Source of the DNA: a virus
Virus record (IMG/VR): IMGVR_UViG_3300010885_023630
Span: 62,981-126,980 of that record
Reading direction: 5' to 3' (one strand)
Length of the DNA: 64,000 nt
Of this stretch, positions 57,407 through 63,553 are shown in pieces (positions within the stretch are counted from its first letter, which is position 1; the number at the start of each line of letters is the position of its first letter). The translations under genes and the position numbers were made by a program. Below the pieces are notes generated by a model, which did not search any database, was not told the DNA's origin, and was given only the letters and a program-made list of their open reading frames with translations.

Positions 57407-57483
57407 GGGCCTATAGCTCAGTTGGTTAGAGCAGAGGACTCATAATCCTTTGGTCCCTGGTTCGAGTCCAGGTGGGCCCACCA
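57407..57483 (+). tRNA. tRNA-Ile2 (CAT, lysidine type)
   Basis: Cloverleaf; loop CTCATAA; resembles bacterial ileX; CCA encoded. Confidence 0.85.
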
Positions 57484-57494
57484 AATTGAAAACT

Positions 57495-58265
57495 ATGTTT
57501 TACGAAAAATTACCATTTACCATTGACGTTGAGCGAGCTAGATATGATTTAAATCATACTATATTGCCTCTTGGTGAACCTGTAATGCAAGGTGCCGAAT
57601 ACAACAGCACAGAGTATCATGGTTTTGGTGGGTACAGCGTTTTAAGCAGGACTGGAGATTGGCGCGATGGTTGGGAAATGGGACATATTGCTCACTCAGA
57701 AGCAAGACAGTATGTTTACCCAGACGGTATTCCTAACTATCGTGCGTTAAAGTATTTGAATTTTTCGCATGGGTTTGAACACAATACACCTACACAGGCG
57801 TATGTGGGAGAGATTCAGCGAATTGTTGAACAGTTGGCCAATAATGGATTTTATCCTAGACGGGCTCGTATAAGTTTAATGAAAGCAGGAGCAGTAACAA
57901 CAGTACATCAGGACGGATCAATTGATTCGTATATGGCAAGAGTTCATATACCTATTGTAACAAATGACGCTTGTATACATAGTTGCGAAGGAATAGATCT
58001 TCATATGCCGGCTGATGGTAGCGTATATATAATGTGGGTTAATCGGTTACATCAAGCAGTGAATACATCCACGCAAGATAGATATCATATATTGATGGAT
58101 GTGTATGATACAAATGGATTAACAGAAAATTTTAAATACGCAAAGGACATAAGTATACTACAACAAGAAGCAGATGCGTTTAGGCAAAAACTTGATGTTA
58201 TTACTTTATCTCCGGAAGAAATTGTAACATACGACGCTATAAAAGCTCAATTTATAAAGAAATAA
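57495..58265 (+). CDS. aspartyl/asparaginyl beta-hydroxylase-like 2OG-Fe(II) oxygenase
   Basis: HxD 'HQD', 'RVHIPIVTN', 'H.AVN....RYH'; start revised to MFYEK. Confidence 0.8.
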   Translation: MFYEKLPFTIDVERARYDLNHTILPLGEPVMQGAEYNSTEYHGFGGYSVLSRTGDWRDGWEMGHIAHSEARQYVYPDGIPNYRALKYLNFSHGFEHNTPTQAYVGEIQRIVEQLANNGFYPRRARISLMKAGAVTTVHQDGSIDSYMARVHIPIVTNDACIHSCEGIDLHMPADGSVYIMWVNRLHQAVNTSTQDRYHILMDVYDTNGLTENFKYAKDISILQQEADAFRQKLDVITLSPEEIVTYDAIKAQFIKK

Positions 58266-58266
58266 T

Positions 58267-58351
58267 GCCCCGATGGTGGAATTGGTAGACACGCTGGTCT
58301 TAGAAGCCAGTACCGCAAGGTGTGCGAGTTCAAGTCTCGCTTGGGGCACCA
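58267..58351 (+). tRNA. tRNA-Leu (TAG)
   Basis: Cloverleaf with long variable arm; CCA. Confidence 0.95.
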
Positions 58352-58369
58352 ATCAAATAGGAAACTGAT

Positions 58370-58771
58370 ATGTTAGAATGTTTAATCGCAGGCGATTCAA
58401 TAGCAGTTGGGGTTGCCAATGTAAGAAAAGAATGTGTCGCTTATGCCAAGGGTGGGATAAACTCCAAACAATGGCTAGATACAAATATTCAAAATACTCC
58501 TTTAATGGCCAAACATGTAATTATTAGTCTTGGCTCAAATGATCACAAGTATATTAAAACTGAAGAAGAGTTGCGTACCGTCAGACAGCTAACCAAAGCT
58601 GATAGAGTATACTGGGTATTACCCAGTACTAAATTTCCAGTTCAACGTGATGCTATTTGGCGAATTGCCAACGAGTACCACGATACCGTACTTAAAACTG
58701 AACGTATGCAAGCAGACAACGTCCACCCAAGTTGGGCCGGATACAAGGAAATAGCCAAGGCATCCGAATGA
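58370..58771 (+). CDS. small SGNH hydrolase
   Basis: GDS; 'SLGSND'; 'DNVHP'. Confidence 0.8.
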   Translation: MLECLIAGDSIAVGVANVRKECVAYAKGGINSKQWLDTNIQNTPLMAKHVIISLGSNDHKYIKTEEELRTVRQLTKADRVYWVLPSTKFPVQRDAIWRIANEYHDTVLKTERMQADNVHPSWAGYKEIAKASE

Positions 58772-59280
58772 AATGGGTTTCTGTAATACAGGAAATGATA
58801 CCTGAGTACGCCAAGGATGCTAAGATAAACCTTGACACAGTACTTAACAATGGCACAATACCCGCTGATGAATCTGAGGGTATAGCACTATCAGCGGCTC
58901 TTGCTACCGGTAATACCAAGTTAACAGCACTTATACAAAGCGATATGGAAAACGCAGTAGAGCGTGATGCGGCCTTGGGCATCGGTGTTTTAATGGCACA
59001 AAACAATGTATGGTATTCGTATGTTGATATGACACGAGATTTACAATTATCAGCATTGCCGGCTATGTTGCGTATGAGTATTACTGCCAACAACGGTGGA
59101 ACAACTAAAGAACGTTTTGAAGCATACAGCTTGGCCGCAAGTATTGTGGGAAAATGTCAATTTTGTACTAAAACGCACTACGACAACTTAAAAAAGTTAG
59201 GATATACAGTAGAGCAACTTCGTGATCTTGGACGTATTGTGGCTACCATTAATTCAATAGCAAAAGTTCTAAATAGCTAA
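58768..59280 (+). CDS. ahpD: alkyl hydroperoxide reductase AhpD
   Basis: 'IPEYAKD.K.NL', 'MAQNNVWY', 'FE..SLAASIVGKCQFC..H'. Confidence 0.9.
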   Translation: MKWVSVIQEMIPEYAKDAKINLDTVLNNGTIPADESEGIALSAALATGNTKLTALIQSDMENAVERDAALGIGVLMAQNNVWYSYVDMTRDLQLSALPAMLRMSITANNGGTTKERFEAYSLAASIVGKCQFCTKTHYDNLKKLGYTVEQLRDLGRIVATINSIAKVLNS

Positions 59281-59289
59281 CAAAACACA

Positions 59290-59318
59290 TTGACACAGTA
59301 TAGCGTTTAATATACAAT
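59290..59318 (+). promoter_or_regulatory. sigma70 promoter for tRNA-Leu(TAA)
   Basis: TTGACA-17 nt-TACAAT; flanks nearly identical to the promoter at 57369. Confidence 0.85.
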
Positions 59319-59342
59319 AAGACTTTAGTTAGCATACAAAAT

Positions 59343-59429
59343 GCGAGTATGGCGAAATAGGTAGACGCAAGAGACTTAAAATCTCTCGGGGGAGACCCCA
59401 TGCCAGTTCGATTCTGGCTACTCGCACCA
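59343..59429 (+). tRNA. tRNA-Leu (TAA)
   Basis: Cloverleaf with long variable arm; CCA. Confidence 0.95.
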
Positions 59430-59521
59430 TAAATATACTGTATAAAGCCCGGGATAAACACGCTCGGGTTAGCTAAAACGGCTAAATAAATACATATATA
59501 CACTCCCGGGAGAATTCCAAG

Positions 59522-60496
59522 ATGACAACACCAAGAAAAGTACGCTGGCTAATCGCACATGAGCCACAAGAGCTATTTGTACGTACAGCTCGAGCTTTTT
59601 CACAAGAATTAGAAAAGCGTATTCCAGGACAGATCGCAATTGAAATTGTAACAGTTCCAGAGTACATTAAAGAACACGAAGGTTCTAAGAACCTACAAAC
59701 AATTCTAGACGAAAATCTAGACAAGCAAGGTGTAGCAGTTGAAGCCCTTTTTGATGCGTTACGTGACGATATCCAAATGAGCCAAACACAGGTTAGCGTA
59801 GTTGGTTACAAAGACCGTGCTTTCCACGCATTGGATTTACCATTCTTATTTGACAATCATGAACACGTTAGCCGTGTACTAGAAGGTCCAATTGGTGAAG
59901 AAATTTGTGCCAACTTAGAAAAAGTTAGCGATGTTAAAGGCCTAGCATTTACATACTCGGGCGGTTATCGTGTGGTTGGTTCTAACCACAAGATTGAAGA
60001 CCTAGCCGACTTGGCTAGCCAAAAGGTTATTGTTAGCAACCGTGGTCCACGTGCCGATACATTTGAATCAGTTGGTGTAGAGCCTGTTGTTGTTAGCCCA
60101 CATTTGTGGGGCGGATACGACACAGTTCCAGAAGGTGGTGCCGCTAATGCTATTGAAACTACATACTTACGTTTTAAAGGTACACACATCCTTAAAACTA
60201 ATCACAGTATTTTCATGACAACCATCTTGACCAACAAGGCATTTTGGGAAAGTCTAACAGCAGAACAGCAGACAGCATTTGAAGAAAGTGCTAAAATTAC
60301 AGCACGTATTGAACGTCAGTGGGCCATTGCCGATGCTGAGAAGTTCGAACAAGACGCATTAGCAAATGGCATTGAGATCACTGAACTATCAGAAGAAGAT
60401 ACAAAGACAATGAAGCACAAGTCACGTTACACTTACTTGAAGTTTGATGCGGAAAATAATCGTAGTGATTTGATCAAAAGAATCCGTTTAAGCTAA
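59522..60496 (+). CDS. dctP: TRAP transporter solute-binding protein DctP-like, lacking a signal peptide
   Basis: 'ALDLPFLF...HV.RVLEGPIG', 'GGYR', 'FWESLTAEQQ..F'; no hydrophobic N-terminus. Confidence 0.8.
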   Translation: MTTPRKVRWLIAHEPQELFVRTARAFSQELEKRIPGQIAIEIVTVPEYIKEHEGSKNLQTILDENLDKQGVAVEALFDALRDDIQMSQTQVSVVGYKDRAFHALDLPFLFDNHEHVSRVLEGPIGEEICANLEKVSDVKGLAFTYSGGYRVVGSNHKIEDLADLASQKVIVSNRGPRADTFESVGVEPVVVSPHLWGGYDTVPEGGAANAIETTYLRFKGTHILKTNHSIFMTTILTNKAFWESLTAEQQTAFEESAKITARIERQWAIADAEKFEQDALANGIEITELSEEDTKTMKHKSRYTYLKFDAENNRSDLIKRIRLS

Positions 60497-60502
60497 TAGA
60501 GG

Positions 60503-60531
60503 TTGACAACAAAAGGTAAATAAACTACAAT
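60503..60531 (+). promoter_or_regulatory. sigma70 promoter (with embedded TAAATA late motif) heading the leader/ncRNA/tRNA region
   Basis: TTGACA(60503-08)-17 nt-TACAAT(60526-31); TAAATA at 60517-22. Confidence 0.85.
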
Positions 60532-60541
60532 AGATACTATT

Positions 60542-60673
60542 ATGAAACTAAGAACTTGTAAACATTCCATAAGTAACCAGCCACAATTAGGCGTGTCAGC
60601 CTATTGGCCTACTTTTGCGATGTCAACAATTATTAGTGATAATCGTGAACCACTAGTCGGGGGTCTCAGTTAA
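60542..60673 (+). CDS. putative attenuator leader peptide MKLRTCKHSISNQPQLGVSAYWPTFAMSTIISDNREPLVGGLS (43 aa)
   Basis: Translated by hand. All 20 amino acids occur by codon 36, with 34 distinct codons. The stop lies inside the antiterminator 5' arm. Confidence 0.65.
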   Translation: MKLRTCKHSISNQPQLGVSAYWPTFAMSTIISDNREPLVGGLS

Positions 60674-60710
60674 CGTATAGTACCTAACAGTATTTTAACT
60701 AAGACCTCGG
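60657..60710 (+). promoter_or_regulatory. putative antiterminator hairpin
   Basis: GGGGTCTCAGTTAA (to 60673) pairs with TTAACTAAGACCTC (from 60695) at 13 of 14 positions; the 3' arm is the terminator's 5' arm. Confidence 0.7.
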
Positions 60711-60738
60711 AACTAAACACTCCGAGGTTTTTGTTTTT
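60701..60738 (+). terminator. intrinsic terminator (conditional, attenuator)
   Basis: AAGACCTCGGA-9 nt-TCCGAGGTTTT followed by TGTTTTT. Confidence 0.85.
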
Positions 60739-60752
60739 ATAAGGAAAAGAAA

Positions 60753-60905
60753 ATGTTGAAAACTGATAAACCAAAAGTTTTGCCTAGTCAGTATACAATA
60801 ACGCAGGCACAAAAACTTGCGTTGATAGAAGGCAAACTACAACGAGCCGAAGCTCACGTTAAGGCATTAACAGAAATTGTTGAAAAGCTGGAACGTAAGA
60901 AGTAA
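60753..60905 (+). CDS. 50-aa basic, helical protein MLKTDKPKVLPSQYTITQAQKLALIEGKLQRAEAHVKALTEIVEKLERKK
   Basis: AAGGA Shine-Dalgarno; first gene after the attenuator terminator; below the ORF-track length cutoff. Confidence 0.7.
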   Translation: MLKTDKPKVLPSQYTITQAQKLALIEGKLQRAEAHVKALTEIVEKLERKK

Positions 60906-61053
60906 GCTCAAAGTGTGTAAGGGAAACGAGGTCCCAGTCTGCACTTAAAACATGGACAAACGGGCGGACAGTATGATGAAAGCGTTGGCGATAACACGTG
61001 AGTAAAACTACTGGTCAGGGTATTAACCCTGTCTATGGCTTGGCAACAGGCCA
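60906..61053 (+). ncRNA. putative structured non-coding RNA
   Basis: No convincing ORF. Stems AAGTGTG/TGCACTT, CAGTA/TACTG, CAGGG/CCCTG and TATGGC/GCCATA. Confidence 0.4.
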
Positions 61054-61148
61054 TATCTTAAAGCGTATTAGACGAGAGCGTCCAAAGGTCCTGAACACCT
61101 TGTGGGGCAGGGCACGGAATCACCGTGACACTAGTATGCTTTAAGATA
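61054..61148 (+). ncRNA. long-stem-closed multibranch (cloverleaf-like) RNA A
   Basis: 18-bp closing stem TATCTTAAAGCGTATTAG/CTAGTATGCTTTAAGATA enclosing three hairpins. Confidence 0.55.
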
Positions 61149-61250
61149 CACTTTAGAAGAACATGCCTAAGCACCACATTGATAAAGTGGATTGCCAGAG
61201 CAGCCGGATATAAACGGAAAGTAGGTTGACAATCCTACCACTAAAGTGTA
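61147..61250 (+). ncRNA. long-stem-closed multibranch RNA B
   Basis: Perfect 10-bp TACACTTTAG/CTAAAGTGTA stem; inner hairpins include T-arm-like GTAGG-ttgacaat-CCTAC. Confidence 0.45.
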
Positions 61251-61254
61251 AAAT
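61226..61254 (+). promoter_or_regulatory. possible internal sigma70 promoter just upstream of tRNA-Tyr
   Basis: TTGACA-17 nt-TAAAAT, embedded in RNA B. Confidence 0.55.
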
Positions 61255-61263
61255 TGTTTTATT

Positions 61264-61350
61264 GGAGATGTAGGAAAATTGGTAACCCCAGTGGACTGTA
61301 AATCCGCCGCCCGCAAGGCACTACTGGTTCAACTCCAGTCGTCTCCACCA
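61264..61350 (+). tRNA. tRNA-Tyr (GTA)
   Basis: Cloverleaf, long variable arm, CCA. Confidence 0.95.
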
Positions 61351-61359
61351 ATTTAATTT

Positions 61360-61436
61360 CGGAGTGTAGCACAGCCTGGTAGTGCGCCTGGTTTGGGACC
61401 AGGAGGTCCAAGGTTCGAATCCTTGTACTCCGACCA
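61360..61436 (+). tRNA. tRNA-Pro (TGG)
   Basis: Cloverleaf, CCA. Confidence 0.95.
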
Positions 61437-61444
61437 TGTTTTAT

Positions 61445-61520
61445 TGGCCTATAGCTCAGTTGGTAGAGCACTTGACTGTTAATCAAGGTGTCCCTGGTTC
61501 GAGCCCAGGTTGGCCAGCCA
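61445..61520 (+). tRNA. tRNA-Asn (GTT)
   Basis: Cloverleaf, CCA. Confidence 0.95.
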
Positions 61521-61705
61521 AATTTAGTCCCGCAAAGGCTATGACGTTCAATCCCTAGAATGTTATCCTCAAACTTGCGAGGCGGGTGTAAGTCCCGTCA
61601 TTAAAAACTGATACACAGGATGGCGTTGTGTACAGCGGATATTCAGCCTGAGGACTGTCGTCCAATAGTTAAAAGACTATATGATATCACTTTAGGGAGT
61701 GATGC

Positions 61706-61816
61706 CATATAAAAACACATCTATGATCTGGGATATGCGAATGCGTACATAGAAACTAAGATCCCACTTGTTAGTGGGTACGGGAGTGAAAATCTCCCTA
61801 GGTGTGTTTTTATATG
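61706..61816 (+). ncRNA. long-stem-closed multibranch RNA C
   Basis: 18-bp stem CATATAAAAACACATCTA/TAGGTGTGTTTTTATATG; inner CCCAC/GTGGG and T-arm-like GGGAG-tgaaaat-CTCCC. Confidence 0.55.
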
Positions 61817-61821
61817 TCTAT

Positions 61822-61898
61822 GCCACCATAGCTCAGTTGGTTAGAGCACCGTCTTGATAAGGCGGGGGTCCATGGTTCAAATCCATGTGGCGGCACCA
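61822..61898 (+). tRNA. tRNA-Ile (GAT)
   Basis: Cloverleaf, CCA. Confidence 0.95.
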
Positions 61899-61921
61899 GT
61901 ATATTAAGATAAGTAAACAAT

Positions 61922-61997
61922 GGGGGTATAGCTCAGCTGGGAGAGCAGTAGCTTTGCAAGCTAAAGGTCGTCGGTTCGATCCCGTCTACCTCCACCA
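61922..61997 (+). tRNA. tRNA-Ala (TGC)
   Basis: Cloverleaf with G3-U70 pair, CCA. Confidence 0.95.
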
Positions 61998-62015
61998 AAC
62001 ACAAGGAGAAGCTGT

Positions 62016-62159
62016 ATGTCAAAGAATGAAGACACTTTAAACAAAGCATACGGCAACATGCCTAAGGACGTTGGTTTTATTGTTGATCTTGATTGGTTAC
62101 CTACGTGGAGAGGCTTTAAGTATTACTACTATAAGTTAATACGTAAAGCAACAAGATAA
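62016..62159 (+). CDS. 47-aa hypothetical protein within the tRNA array
   Basis: AAGGAG Shine-Dalgarno; MSKNEDTLNKAYGNMPKDVGFIVDLDWLPTWRGFKYYYYKLIRKATR. Confidence 0.7.
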   Translation: MSKNEDTLNKAYGNMPKDVGFIVDLDWLPTWRGFKYYYYKLIRKATR

Positions 62160-62165
62160 GATTTT

Positions 62166-62252
62166 GGAGGGTTGGCCGAGCGGTAAGGCAACAGATTGCT
62201 AATCTGTCATCCAGCAATGGGTGGATTGGTTCGATTCCAATACTCTCCGCCA
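62166..62252 (+). tRNA. tRNA-Ser (GCT)
   Basis: Cloverleaf, long variable arm, CCA. Confidence 0.93.
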
Positions 62253-62257
62253 TTTAT

Positions 62258-62333
<76 letters not shown>

Positions 62334-62338
62334 AGTTT

Positions 62339-62414
62339 GGGTCGTTAGCTCAGTTGGTAGAGCGTCTGCCTTACACGCAGAATGTCGGCAGTTCGAACCT
62401 GTCACGACCCACCA
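62339..62414 (+). tRNA. tRNA-Val (TAC)
   Basis: Cloverleaf, CCA. Confidence 0.95.
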
Positions 62415-62420
62415 GTTTAT

Positions 62421-62497
62421 GGCTCGGTAGTTCAGTCTGGCAGAACGTTGGTCTCCAAAACCAAATGTCGGAGGTTCAAATCCTTCCCGGGTCGCCA
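62421..62497 (+). tRNA. tRNA-Trp (CCA)
   Basis: Cloverleaf, CCA. Confidence 0.93.
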
Positions 62498-62507
62498 ATA
62501 TAACTAT

Positions 62508-62585
62508 AGTGCGGTGCCAGAGTGGTCCAATGGGTCGGATTGCAAATCCGTAAAGCCGTGAGTTCAAATCTCACCCGCACTTCCA
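62508..62585 (+). tRNA. tRNA-Cys (GCA)
   Basis: Cloverleaf, U73 discriminator, CCA. Confidence 0.9.
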
Positions 62586-62591
62586 ATCTTA

Positions 62592-62667
62592 GGTAATGTA
62601 GAACAATTGGTAGTTCACCTCCTTCATACGGAGACTGTTACTGGTTCGAGTCCAGTCATTACCACCA
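62592..62667 (+). tRNA. tRNA-Met (CAT), elongator type (Ile2 not excluded)
   Basis: Cloverleaf; paired 1-72; lacks the GGG/CCC initiator anticodon stem. Confidence 0.75.
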
Positions 62668-62669
62668 CA

Positions 62670-62746
62670 CGGCCCTTAACTCAATTGGATAGAGTGCTAG
62701 TCTTCGAAACTGGAAGTTGGGAGTTCGAATCTCTCAGGGCTGACCA
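62670..62746 (+). tRNA. tRNA-Arg (TCG)
   Basis: Cloverleaf, CCA. Confidence 0.92.
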
Positions 62747-62805
62747 TACTTGAGTAGTAGAATATTTTCACATATATAACATAATTAAATTTTAAGGAGT
62801 CGTTG

Positions 62806-63204
62806 ATGGAAGTTCATATAGATGCTAGTCCAAAACTGAGTAAGTATATAGAATCGTTGCTTCCATCCTTAATGGAACAGACTGGATTAAACAGAAGTAA
62901 AAAATTTCTATACATCAAAACAGATAAAGATATAGATGCAGCTGGGCAAACAATTCCATTACCTGGTATTGACACATACCTTATTGTGTTATGTCCTACT
63001 AGAAACTATATTGAGTTGGGTCTTACACTAACACACGAATTAGTACACGTTAGTCAAATGACCAAAGGCATATTAAAAATAACTCCCAAGGGCCGTAAGT
63101 GGAAAGGTAAATTTTATCCAAATAAGTATCCTTATCTTTACCAGCCATGGGAAGTACAAGCATTTAGTAAACAGGAAATTATTTTTCGCAGAGCAATAGA
63201 TTAA
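62806..63204 (+). CDS. HExxH zinc metallopeptidase-like protein
   Basis: 'LTHELVHVSQ' and 'Y..QPWEVQA'; AAGGAG Shine-Dalgarno. Confidence 0.75.
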   Translation: MEVHIDASPKLSKYIESLLPSLMEQTGLNRSKKFLYIKTDKDIDAAGQTIPLPGIDTYLIVLCPTRNYIELGLTLTHELVHVSQMTKGILKITPKGRKWKGKFYPNKYPYLYQPWEVQAFSKQEIIFRRAID

Positions 63205-63209
63205 ATTGT

Positions 63210-63283
63210 TGGGGGTTAGTTAAATGGTATAACCACGGATTTTGATTCCGTTATTAGAAGTTCGATCCTTCTACCCTCTGCCA
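63210..63283 (+). tRNA. tRNA-Gln (TTG)
   Basis: Cloverleaf with 1-72 mismatch, CCA. Confidence 0.9.
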
Positions 63284-63436
63284 AAATTTAGGAAGACCGT
63301 CTGGTATAAATGCAGGCGGTTTTTCTTTGGGGAAAAATACTTTAAATTCTTTTACGCAGGTATGTGTAGCACCCGGAGTATATTCTCCTTGCGCTATTTT
63401 AATAAGATCGTTAGTAGCATCTTCGGCGGTTATCAT
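63254..63436 (-). CDS. 60-aa hypothetical late protein, antisense within the tRNA array
   Basis: TATAAATA 5 nt before the ATG, the same geometry as other late genes; 3' end overlaps tRNA-Gln. Confidence 0.55.
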   Translation of the reverse strand: MITAEDATNDLIKIAQGEYTPGATHTCVKEFKVFFPKEKPPAFIPDGLPKFWQRVEGSNF

Positions 63437-63463
63437 ACAATTATTTATAGAGTTCCAAACAAA

Positions 63464-63553
63464 GGAAGTGTGGCAGAGTCCGGCTTATCGCACCAGTCTT
63501 GAAAACTGACGGCCCGAAAGGGTCCGTGGGTTCGAATCCCACCGCTTCCGCCA
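63464..63553 (+). tRNA. tRNA-Ser (TGA)
   Basis: Cloverleaf, long variable arm, CCA. Confidence 0.95.

Follow-up and report, generated by a model that had tools for sequence, protein, structure and literature searches.

Why should a large phage place, ahead of its main block of tRNA genes and of the small ORF and RNA before them, a short open reading frame (ORF) that runs through all 20 amino acids and ends inside a hairpin? The question is raised by positions 60,503 to 60,738 of a 64,000-nt stretch of viral DNA (hereafter the window) from the IMG/VR record IMGVR_UViG_3300010885_023630. The reading we favor is that this unit, comprising a promoter, a 43-codon leader ORF and two competing hairpins, is a ribosome-dependent (leader-peptide) transcription attenuator, which would switch the downstream genes on whenever ribosomes or any one charged tRNA run short; we put its probability at about 62%. 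The features of the unit, in window coordinates, are as follows.

60503–60531, + strand: sigma-70-type promoter, TTGACA-17-TACAAT (-35 at 60503–60508, -10 at 60526–60531), matching 11 of 12 consensus positions
60517–60523, + strand: TAAATAA motif within the promoter spacer, conserved family-wide
60542–60673, + strand: near-leaderless leader ORF of 43 codons (MKLRTCKHSISNQPQLGVSAYWPTFAMSTIISDNREPLVGGLS), encoding all 20 amino acids
60580–60608, + strand: mid-ORF hairpin over the QP.LG..AYW codons (GCCA/UGGC and UAGGC/GCCUA), conserved
60632–60657, + strand: hairpin ATTAGTG/CACTAGT, in the predicted fold of this phage only
60660–60673, + strand: antiterminator 5' arm GGGGUCUCAGUUAA, formed by codons 40–43 and the stop TAA
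60695–60708, + strand: antiterminator 3' arm UUAACUAAGACCUC, overlapping the terminator 5' arm
60701–60738, + strand: intrinsic terminator, stem CCUCGGA/UCCGAGG (extendable by A-U pairs), loop ACUAAACAC, followed by UUUUUGUUUUU

The predicted transcript start lies about 3 nt 5' of the leader ATG, which begins 10 nt past the -10 hexamer and has no Shine-Dalgarno sequence. The promoter scan as a whole was not above chance (21 sites vs 19.7 in shuffles); the four sites that match at 11 of 12 positions (57369, 59290, 60503 and 61226) all lie on the + strand, each directly 5' of a tRNA gene or of the leader ORF.

The first 36 codons of the leader cover the full set of 20 amino acids, for which a stretch of 31 residues is already enough; 34 distinct codons are used overall, 24 of them among the first 26. 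Seven of the 20 amino acids occur only once, and there is no run of codons for any regulatory amino acid. Coverage of this kind was found in 33 of 35,163 36-residue windows of the long ORFs of this genome (0.09%), in 343 of 200,000 random 36-codon strings (0.17%) and in two of the 347 short ORFs (36–50 aa) of the 127-kb record, the leader included. Taken alone it is rare, yet a chance find is plausible when a genome is scanned. The promoter and the ORF are thus as described in the original prediction, which was made from the sequence alone, and complete coverage proved uncommon in same-length windows of the genome, the check proposed with it. Its further point, that nearly every phage tRNA in the window has a cognate codon in the leader, holds as a count (16 of 17) but is uninformative, because the leader uses 34 of the 61 codons and about this many matches are expected. 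The leader codons show no general skew to rare codons, the sole raised codon being CTA (0.35 of Leu codons vs 0.19). The 43-aa product was unmatched in Pfam and PHROGs, and 60503–61225 had no covariance-model match in Rfam at E up to 1, leader families included.

In this phage, GGGGUCUCAGUUAA and UUAACUAAGACCUC form 13 of 14 pairs. The terminator has a core stem of 60705–60711/60721–60727, a 9-nt loop and a T-run at 60728–60738 (-14.5 kcal/mol); its sequence occurs once in the 127-kb record, and it shares 60705–60708 with the antiterminator. The whole 208-nt unit folds more stably than shuffles (z = -3.3), and its ribosome-free predicted fold retains the antiterminator.

Relatives of the element and conservation of its RNA

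Metagenome contigs aligned to the region indicated that the terminator module and an RNA motif near 60912–60967 recur in other phages, and because of these partial matches viral contigs were scanned with three patterns. Scan 1, anchored on the antiterminator 3' arm and terminator only, gave 10 loci, six of them unique. Scan 2, anchored on the promoter spacer and the Ala-Tyr-Trp codons, gave 51 stretches, including chance matches without the family features at 17 loci in nine distinct places (L012/57/58, L013, L016, L017, L018/23/46, L019/51, L022/37 and L048, as filed). Loci L053 and L056 are incomplete at their ends. Scans 1 and 2 pooled yielded 32 unique leaders of 38–51 codons with a median pairwise identity of 38%. 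The element is widespread: scan 3, anchored on the downstream RNA only and ignoring the leader, found at least 120 viral stretches, with 94 unique loci having at least 450 nt upstream among the matches listed. Leaders in these were called by a composition-blind rule (TAAATA motif, first ATG within 25 nt, ORF of 25–75 codons, terminator within 110 nt) or by a looser rule, which added 26 scan-3 loci among the matches listed and kept the candidate with the most distinct residues.

A scan of a genome collection with the RNA pattern returned seven stretches, six of them chance matches inside genes. The seventh belongs to the family: it lies on a contig of 5.9 kb (L173) that was binned as Bacteroidota and gives no basis for naming a host, and its leader has about 17 amino acids as counted by eye. 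Searches with the 324-aa and 486-aa neighboring proteins and with an alignment of the 50-aa ORF found no related loci in viral or metagenome contigs, a search with an exact 17-mer of the antiterminator arm gave no relatives, and there were none among GenBank phages by DNA or by the neighboring DctP-like protein.

All six unique relatives found through the terminator alone share with the window the same type of promoter, an ATG 7–11 nt past the -10, an ORF of 39–43 codons and all 20 amino acids; across 31 relatives the spacing from -10 to ATG is 6–11 nt. The leader frame is open in 32 of 32 relatives, whereas the other two frames are open in none (means of 4.2 and 4.7 stops), and the ratio of nonsynonymous to synonymous changes per site (pN/pS) among close leader pairs is ~0.53. 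TAAATA(A) precedes the leader ATG at two spacings, either 15–22 nt within a sigma-70-type promoter or 5–8 nt without a -35, the latter in more distant relatives (e.g. L066, L069, L071, L073 and L079). Its position suggests a candidate phage-specific promoter element, which we take to resemble the T4-type late promoter element, and the leader may be transcribed from both host-type and phage-type promoters. One leader subfamily (L068, L100, L101, L104, L110, L148 and others) lacks the leaderless start: its ATG comes after an A-rich stretch (AAAGAGAAAACAAA), which is itself preceded by a sigma-70-type promoter and a hairpin, and 19–20 amino acids are again encoded.

The antiterminator of the GGLS-like leaders (n = 14) is a 14-bp helix with 96% of cells paired and seven of the 14 pairs changed on both sides; its covariation score was reached by none of 500 shuffles, and sliding the partner by 1–3 columns lowered the pairing to 19–50%. 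The stop codon lies inside this helix in all 14, and within or just past the 5' arm elsewhere. Other subfamilies have different arms, e.g. AGGGUCC...GGACCCU or GGGGAUUAUAGAA...UUCUAUAAAACCCC, in the same topology, with the 5' arm in the last 0–39 nt of the ORF. Between 4 and 10 positions of the terminator arm are shared with the antiterminator in 31 of 31 relatives; the terminator stems covary as well (CCUCGG/CCGAGG, CCCUGG/CCAGGG, CCCUAGG/CCUAGGG, CCCCAGG/CCUGGGG), and a T-run follows in all 31 complete sequences. The antiterminator first drawn in the window alone, between the last codons with the stop and the terminator 5' arm, is thereby supported by covariation in relatives, which retain the short ORF and the stop in or next to the antiterminator arm while the peptide drifts.

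A separate observation concerns the 9-nt terminator loop (60712–60720), which is conserved in sequence across the 31 relatives as A(C/U)UAAA(A/C)AC despite its varying stem and is unusual in this respect for an intrinsic terminator.

Folding both RNA states, as proposed with the original prediction, separated them: four of 31 unconstrained folds contained the fully formed terminator, but all 31 did once the RNA through stop+9 was masked to mimic a terminating ribosome. Because of this difference, we read the design as on by default and off upon timely, complete translation. Counts from a codon-by-codon equilibrium stall scan were set aside, because in sequences whose terminator can compete thermodynamically the minimum-energy structure takes no account of the order in which the RNA is made.

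The pause hairpin proposed at 60632–60657 is present in the predicted fold of the window but is not conserved, the equivalent region of the relatives having a mean fold z of -0.32 with four of 31 below -1.5. The mid-ORF hairpin at 60580–60608 has a mean fold z of -2.6, with 28 of 31 below -1.5; it shows no covariation (0 pairs changed on both sides). It is a candidate RNA-polymerase pause or synchronizing element, which is a guess, and it may be the reason for the invariant GCC-UAU-UGG and GGC, conserved even at synonymous sites. No conserved anti-antiterminator (1:2) pairing was found.

Amino-acid completeness of the leader

All 20 amino acids are present in 20 of the 32 close leaders, 19 in nine (Cys being absent in eight and Leu in one), 18 in two and 17 in one; a 33rd close leader (L040) is likewise complete. 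In independent draws with eight conserved columns held fixed, including the Ala, Tyr and Trp demanded by scan 2, the expected number of complete leaders among 32 was 0.9 with genome, 2.2 with family and 3.2 with uniform composition, and no run out of 20,000 came to 20. When leaders were instead evolved along the family tree, starting from a complete ancestor (5000 runs), 3.0 were complete on average and 15 at most, vs the 20 observed.

Single residues are also found to move. Cys occurs in at least five different contexts across the leader alignment; D and P of the S-D-R-E-P block are lost in L011 and present elsewhere in the same leader; K and I have exchanged positions between L024 and L045; and in L042 E is lost at one place while D has changed to E at another.

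Scan 3 ignored the leader altogether. By the composition-blind rule, a leader was present in 63 of the 94 listed loci; among the 61 unique peptides that these encode, 36 contain the full set and another 15 fall one amino acid short. By the looser rule, 55 of 84 unique peptides among the matches listed are complete, in 45 clusters at 50% identity of which 29 have a complete member; the expectation for 84 is 11.5 with uniform and 3.9 with pooled composition, and the highest value in 4000 runs was 11. The figure of 55/84 is biased because the most diverse ORF candidate was kept, and 36/61 is the unbiased one. Among the same listed matches, whole subfamilies with unrelated peptides and different 5' ends still keep the complete set. 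Loci without the upstream ORF are few: the leader is missing in only three of the 94 listed loci (L090, L113 and L142), where the RNA has its own promoter. Judged on these alignments and simulations, the leader is under selection to hold a complete amino-acid set while the peptide otherwise drifts, and the conservation of amino-acid diversity expected from the window alone is confirmed.

The peptide is not free throughout. AYW is invariant, S and R are present in at least 80% of the 32 leaders, and the constraint extends to synonymous sites, the Ala codon GCC being invariant and the Gly codon GGC nearly so.

A candidate explanation for the incomplete leaders, that a leader without Cys marks a phage without tRNA-Cys, was rejected. 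It seemed promising from short loci and failed on whole tRNA regions: three phages with such leaders (G001, G005 and G002) carry tRNA-Cys. The first is a complete 354-kb genome with 49 tRNAs of all 20 specificities and a leader without Cys; a further relative, G003, is a 12%-complete fragment.

Genes downstream and the genomic setting

The remaining features of the region, again in window coordinates, are as follows.

57407–59429, + strand: tRNA-Met(CAU), tRNA-Leu(UAG) and tRNA-Leu(UAA), upstream of the switch
57450–58265: Asp/Asn beta-hydroxylase-like protein, host-like, interleaved with the upstream tRNAs
58370–58771: GDSL-like fragment, host-like, interleaved with the upstream tRNAs
58732–59280: carboxymuconolactone-decarboxylase-family protein, host-like, interleaved with the upstream tRNAs
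59522–60496: DctP-type TRAP solute-binding protein, host-like (Pfam E = 1e-31)
60753–60905, + strand: Lys/Glu-rich 50-aa ORF, the first gene past the terminator (Shine-Dalgarno AAGGA at 60741–60745)
60911–61220 (approximate ends), + strand: conserved structured RNA, motifs AACGAG (60925–60930) and ACGGGCGGAC
61226–61254, + strand: second sigma-70-type promoter, directly 5' of tRNA-Tyr, matching at 11 of 12 positions
61264–63553, + strand: array of 14 tRNA genes (Tyr, Pro, Asn, Ile, Ala, Ser, Gly, Val, Trp, Cys, Met, Arg, Gln, Ser)

The 50-aa ORF, the structured RNA and the 14 tRNA genes listed in the original prediction are all in place. The ORF belongs to no Pfam or PHROG family and has two close relatives in the protein collection (98% and 84% identity); an ORF of 46–58 aa stands at the same position in 23 of 31 relatives, with a shared motif like AEAH(V/L)(K/Q)AL. 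The structured RNA, with the blocks AGUG...GGNAACGAGNNCC...CACUAUAA...AACGGGCGGAC...AGUAAGA and several covarying hairpins, is present in at least about 118 loci (e.g. L002:310-490), where it follows the switch directly or past the small ORF and precedes the tRNAs. It had no match in Rfam, hits at E >0.4 being hairpin-like noise. Its motif lies within 450 nt past the terminator in 24 of 31 relatives, and among the eight relatives in which no small ORF was detected the RNA starts 18–31 nt past the terminator in seven, the eighth locus being incomplete. This arrangement points to the conserved RNA as the most constant target of the switch.

Same-strand tRNA genes, with none on the opposite strand, occur within 2.5 kb downstream in 23 of 31 relatives, and the position of the element before the main tRNA block is constant in the loci compared. 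Upstream of the switch, the 27 loci with enough sequence for a count have tRNAs of few kinds, namely Met(CAU) in 15, Arg(UCU) in 10, Leu(UAA) in 10, Leu(UAG) in three, Ile(UAU) in three and one suppressor-like tRNA (Pyl, CUA), vs a broad set downstream; the Arg, Leu and Ile tRNAs of this group are readers of AGA, UUA, CUA and AUA. In the window, the upstream tRNA-Met and tRNA-Leu(UAA) lie outside control by the switch because they have strong promoters of their own (57369 and 59290). The pattern suggests that the tRNAs of these phages are split into a constitutive (upstream) and a conditional (downstream) class.

Other RNA genes were seen in the same neighborhoods. ARAGORN reported permuted genes like those of transfer-messenger RNA at L047:11173-11613, just upstream of the leader promoter, and at L052:11362-11791, ~1.6 kb upstream of it. 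A suppressor-like tRNA with anticodon CUA (labelled Pyl) is found at L052:11805-11880 and in the complete genome G001.

The record is 126,980 nt long, with a CheckV completeness of 36%, and the window is its last 64 kb. Genes for tail sheath, tail tube, terminase and a UvsX-like protein mark it as a jumbo myovirus. The nearest cultured phages are PA5oct-like jumbo phages, with 54% terminase identity, a distance too great for a DNA comparison to be feasible. Near-identical DNA occurs in sequencing runs labelled freshwater or lake metagenomes. None of the host-like genes of 57450–60496 was matched in GenBank phages. One contig from an RNA library (run X10, 229 nt, 0 differences) spans 60695–60923 and bridges the terminator, though DNA carry-over is possible and contigs reveal no transcript ends; at the level of contig mapping, 60538–60694 is covered by no RNA contig.

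Proposed mechanism and rival explanations

Comparison with the relatives supports the core of the original interpretation, each of its checks that could be computed having turned out favorably. From this arrangement we infer that the ORF is translated and that the switch works in vivo as follows. Transcription would start a few bases 5' of the ATG, and a ribosome would load on the 5'-terminal AUG and trail the polymerase; because the start codon is 5'-terminal, it can load once the RNA emerges. By default, the last four codons and the stop would pair with the segment ahead of the terminator, sequestering the terminator 5' arm, and the polymerase would go on to transcribe the tRNA array together with the 50-aa gene and the RNA before it. 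A ribosome passing through the 43 codons undelayed would cover the antiterminator 5' arm, so that the terminator forms and transcription stops at ~60738. For this it would have to arrive at the last codons while the terminator 3' arm, ~60 nt further, is still to be transcribed. A delay, whether from scarcity of a charged tRNA for any amino acid, from few ribosomes or from a block in elongation, would let the antiterminator form first and give read-through. With the full amino-acid set represented in the leader, scarcity of any one charged tRNA would be enough to turn the genes on.

Four structural features, a short ORF at the 5' end, an intrinsic terminator, an antiterminator that excludes it and a stop codon that occludes the antiterminator, place the element by its sequence in the class of leader-peptide attenuators. 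It departs from the class in three ways: a complete set of amino acids in place of a codon run, no demonstrable 1:2 hairpin, and RNA genes as targets. The classical leaders (trpL, hisL, pheL, leuL, thrL and ilvL) repeat codons for one to three regulatory amino acids, whose biosynthesis they control, and an extra upstream 1:2 pairing ensures that no translation leads to termination. Common to them and the phage element is that the position of the ribosome picks antiterminator or terminator and that the stop blocks the antiterminator. By contrast, the phage element should be read through when translation is lacking, and its leader samples the full set of 20 amino acids.

The closest published analogue is the upstream ORF (uORF) of mycobacterial whiB7, which like the leader is followed by an alternative antiterminator and Rho-independent terminator. 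The whiB7 report (PMC10274678) describes efficient uORF translation as leading to termination and impaired translation to read-through, the device responding to translation stress in general and to starvation for many different amino acids; the composition of the uORF decides which starvation is sensed, and removal of Trp or His codons abolished the matching response. A device of this type can thus sense many amino acids, since the whiB7 uORF is reported there to do so. The same report gives the whiB7 uORF as enriched in Ala and its completeness as not conserved, the uORF of M. tuberculosis lacking several amino acids (PMC10274678), whereas the phage leader is not enriched in Ala (two of 43 residues) and its completeness is conserved. 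The output of whiB7 is, on that account, a transcription factor, vs the 50-aa ORF, RNA and tRNA genes here, and the phage element is phage-borne, near-leaderless and without sequence relationship to the whiB7 uORF.

The trn L-array of Anabaena is similar in that an extra block of tRNAs is kept quiet and induced when translation is impaired, but differs in that control is reported to be exerted at the promoter by the repressor TrcR bound to direct repeats (PMC8421152, PMC10272220); the terms 'attenuat', 'leader peptide' and 'terminator' are absent from PMC8421152. At the antibiotic-responsive leaders of vmlR, msrD/mef and yxjB, a stall in a short leader ORF is likewise reported to relieve premature termination, so that impaired translation is sensed there too; the stalls, however, are those of drug-bound ribosomes at specific motifs, the targets are resistance genes and a complete set is not known to be involved. 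In full-text searches of the literature, judged on listings, abstracts and the passages cited and not extending to subscription-only papers, we found no description of leader attenuation before tRNA genes or in phages.

Several findings weigh against the attenuator reading. The folding was at equilibrium only, and in the four relatives whose unconstrained fold contains the terminator it forms even without a ribosome. If the ribosome footprint is taken strictly, the D-R-E motif has its Glu, and often its Asp or Arg as well, so near the antiterminator arm that a stall there should favor termination; the whole amino-acid set falls within the read-through stall zone in only five of 31 leaders. Two of the 94 listed loci (L095 and L155) have the ORF and hairpin but no T-run, and L070 and L083 have only TTT in place of the longer run. 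One to three amino acids, mostly Cys, are missing from 12 of the 32 close leaders, and completeness is neither obligatory nor a mirror of tRNA gene content, since leaders without Cys occur in phages with tRNA-Cys. The conserved blocks QP.LG..AYW and INSDRE, together with the pN/pS of ~0.53, are unexplained by a pure sensor of composition. In this phage, moreover, the strong promoter at 61226 separates the switch from the tRNAs, as the original prediction had cautioned; because it intervenes, the switch here can only add to tRNA expression, and its sure targets are the 50-aa gene and the RNA. In favor of the attenuator reading, a strict-consensus promoter between terminator and first tRNA is found only in this window, L007 and L010 (n = 31).

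An unlikely alternative is that the element is a general gauge of transcription-translation coupling or ribosome availability, in which the complete set merely samples the average decoding speed and no single amino acid is sensed. Such a gauge would be well served by a default-on design, with the antiterminator favored in 27 of 31 free folds, as this answers any loss of translation, and by leaderless loading, which ties the ribosome to the RNA 5' end; it would also tolerate the lack of one or more amino acids in 12 of 32 leaders and the poor correspondence of completeness with the tRNA genes. It is harder to reconcile with completeness selected beyond uniform composition (55 of 84 listed vs 11.5 expected) and with the compensated moves of single-copy residues, which are hard to explain unless each amino acid counts.

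The conserved peptide blocks raise the idea of an arrest peptide, in which W...S-D-R-E-P near the C-terminus would meet the ribosome tunnel and stall on a ligand or a state of the ribosome, in the manner of TnaC or SecM, the place of the stall then setting the switch. The invariant AYW, the S and R retained in most close leaders, the pN/pS and the D-R-E motif lying exactly at the boundary of the antiterminator arm all fit. Even so we consider it improbable: the blocks are conserved at synonymous sites too (GCC, GGC) and coincide with the predicted hairpin, so the constraint may act on the RNA; distant subfamilies have other motifs yet keep the complete set; and L011 and L027 are without D and P at the motif.

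There is similarly little chance that the unit is an independent small gene, for a 43-aa peptide or a ~200-nt trans-acting RNA, that ends in an ordinary terminator and regulates nothing downstream, the long hairpin serving only to stabilize its 3' end. Promoter and terminator do bound a ~200-nt unit with a fold z of -3.3, and the tRNAs of this phage have their own promoter. A covarying hairpin that competes with the terminator for 4–8 shared nucleotides in 31 of 31 relatives argues otherwise, as do the lack of a consensus promoter between terminator and tRNAs in most relatives and the peptide itself, since a folded functional peptide is not expected at 38% identity with all 20 amino acids kept. 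A chance ORF beside a terminator, for which the ~2/347 complete short ORFs (about one expected per genome) might speak, is refuted by the comparative data, as ORF, frame and completeness are conserved in dozens of diverged relatives.

A tentative and bolder reading, to which we give somewhat less than even odds, is that the element is a universal gauge of charged-tRNA supply: most of a tRNA set that in complete relatives spans all 20 specificities, with the RNA and the small protein, would be held in reserve and released when decoding of any amino acid slows. The triggers would be host anticodon nucleases, starvation or the phage's own demand depleting tRNA, and the tRNAs for AGA, UUA, CUA and AUA, with Met, would stand outside the switch and be made constitutively.

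Leader-peptide attenuation is textbook knowledge for amino-acid operons and a few stress regulators, and the conserved completeness found here is a clear signature of selection. If the gauge operates as proposed, large phages would possess a tRNA supply that regulates itself and counters immunity aimed at tRNAs, in which the completeness of a leader, and not its sequence, is selected. This would explain how the big tRNA sets of large phages are regulated and tie them to translation stress, perhaps also linking them to the defences that cleave tRNAs. Completeness would give a simple and testable rule, one codon removed, one response lost, and the element could serve synthetic biology as a compact, naturally evolved gauge of how fast ribosomes translate.

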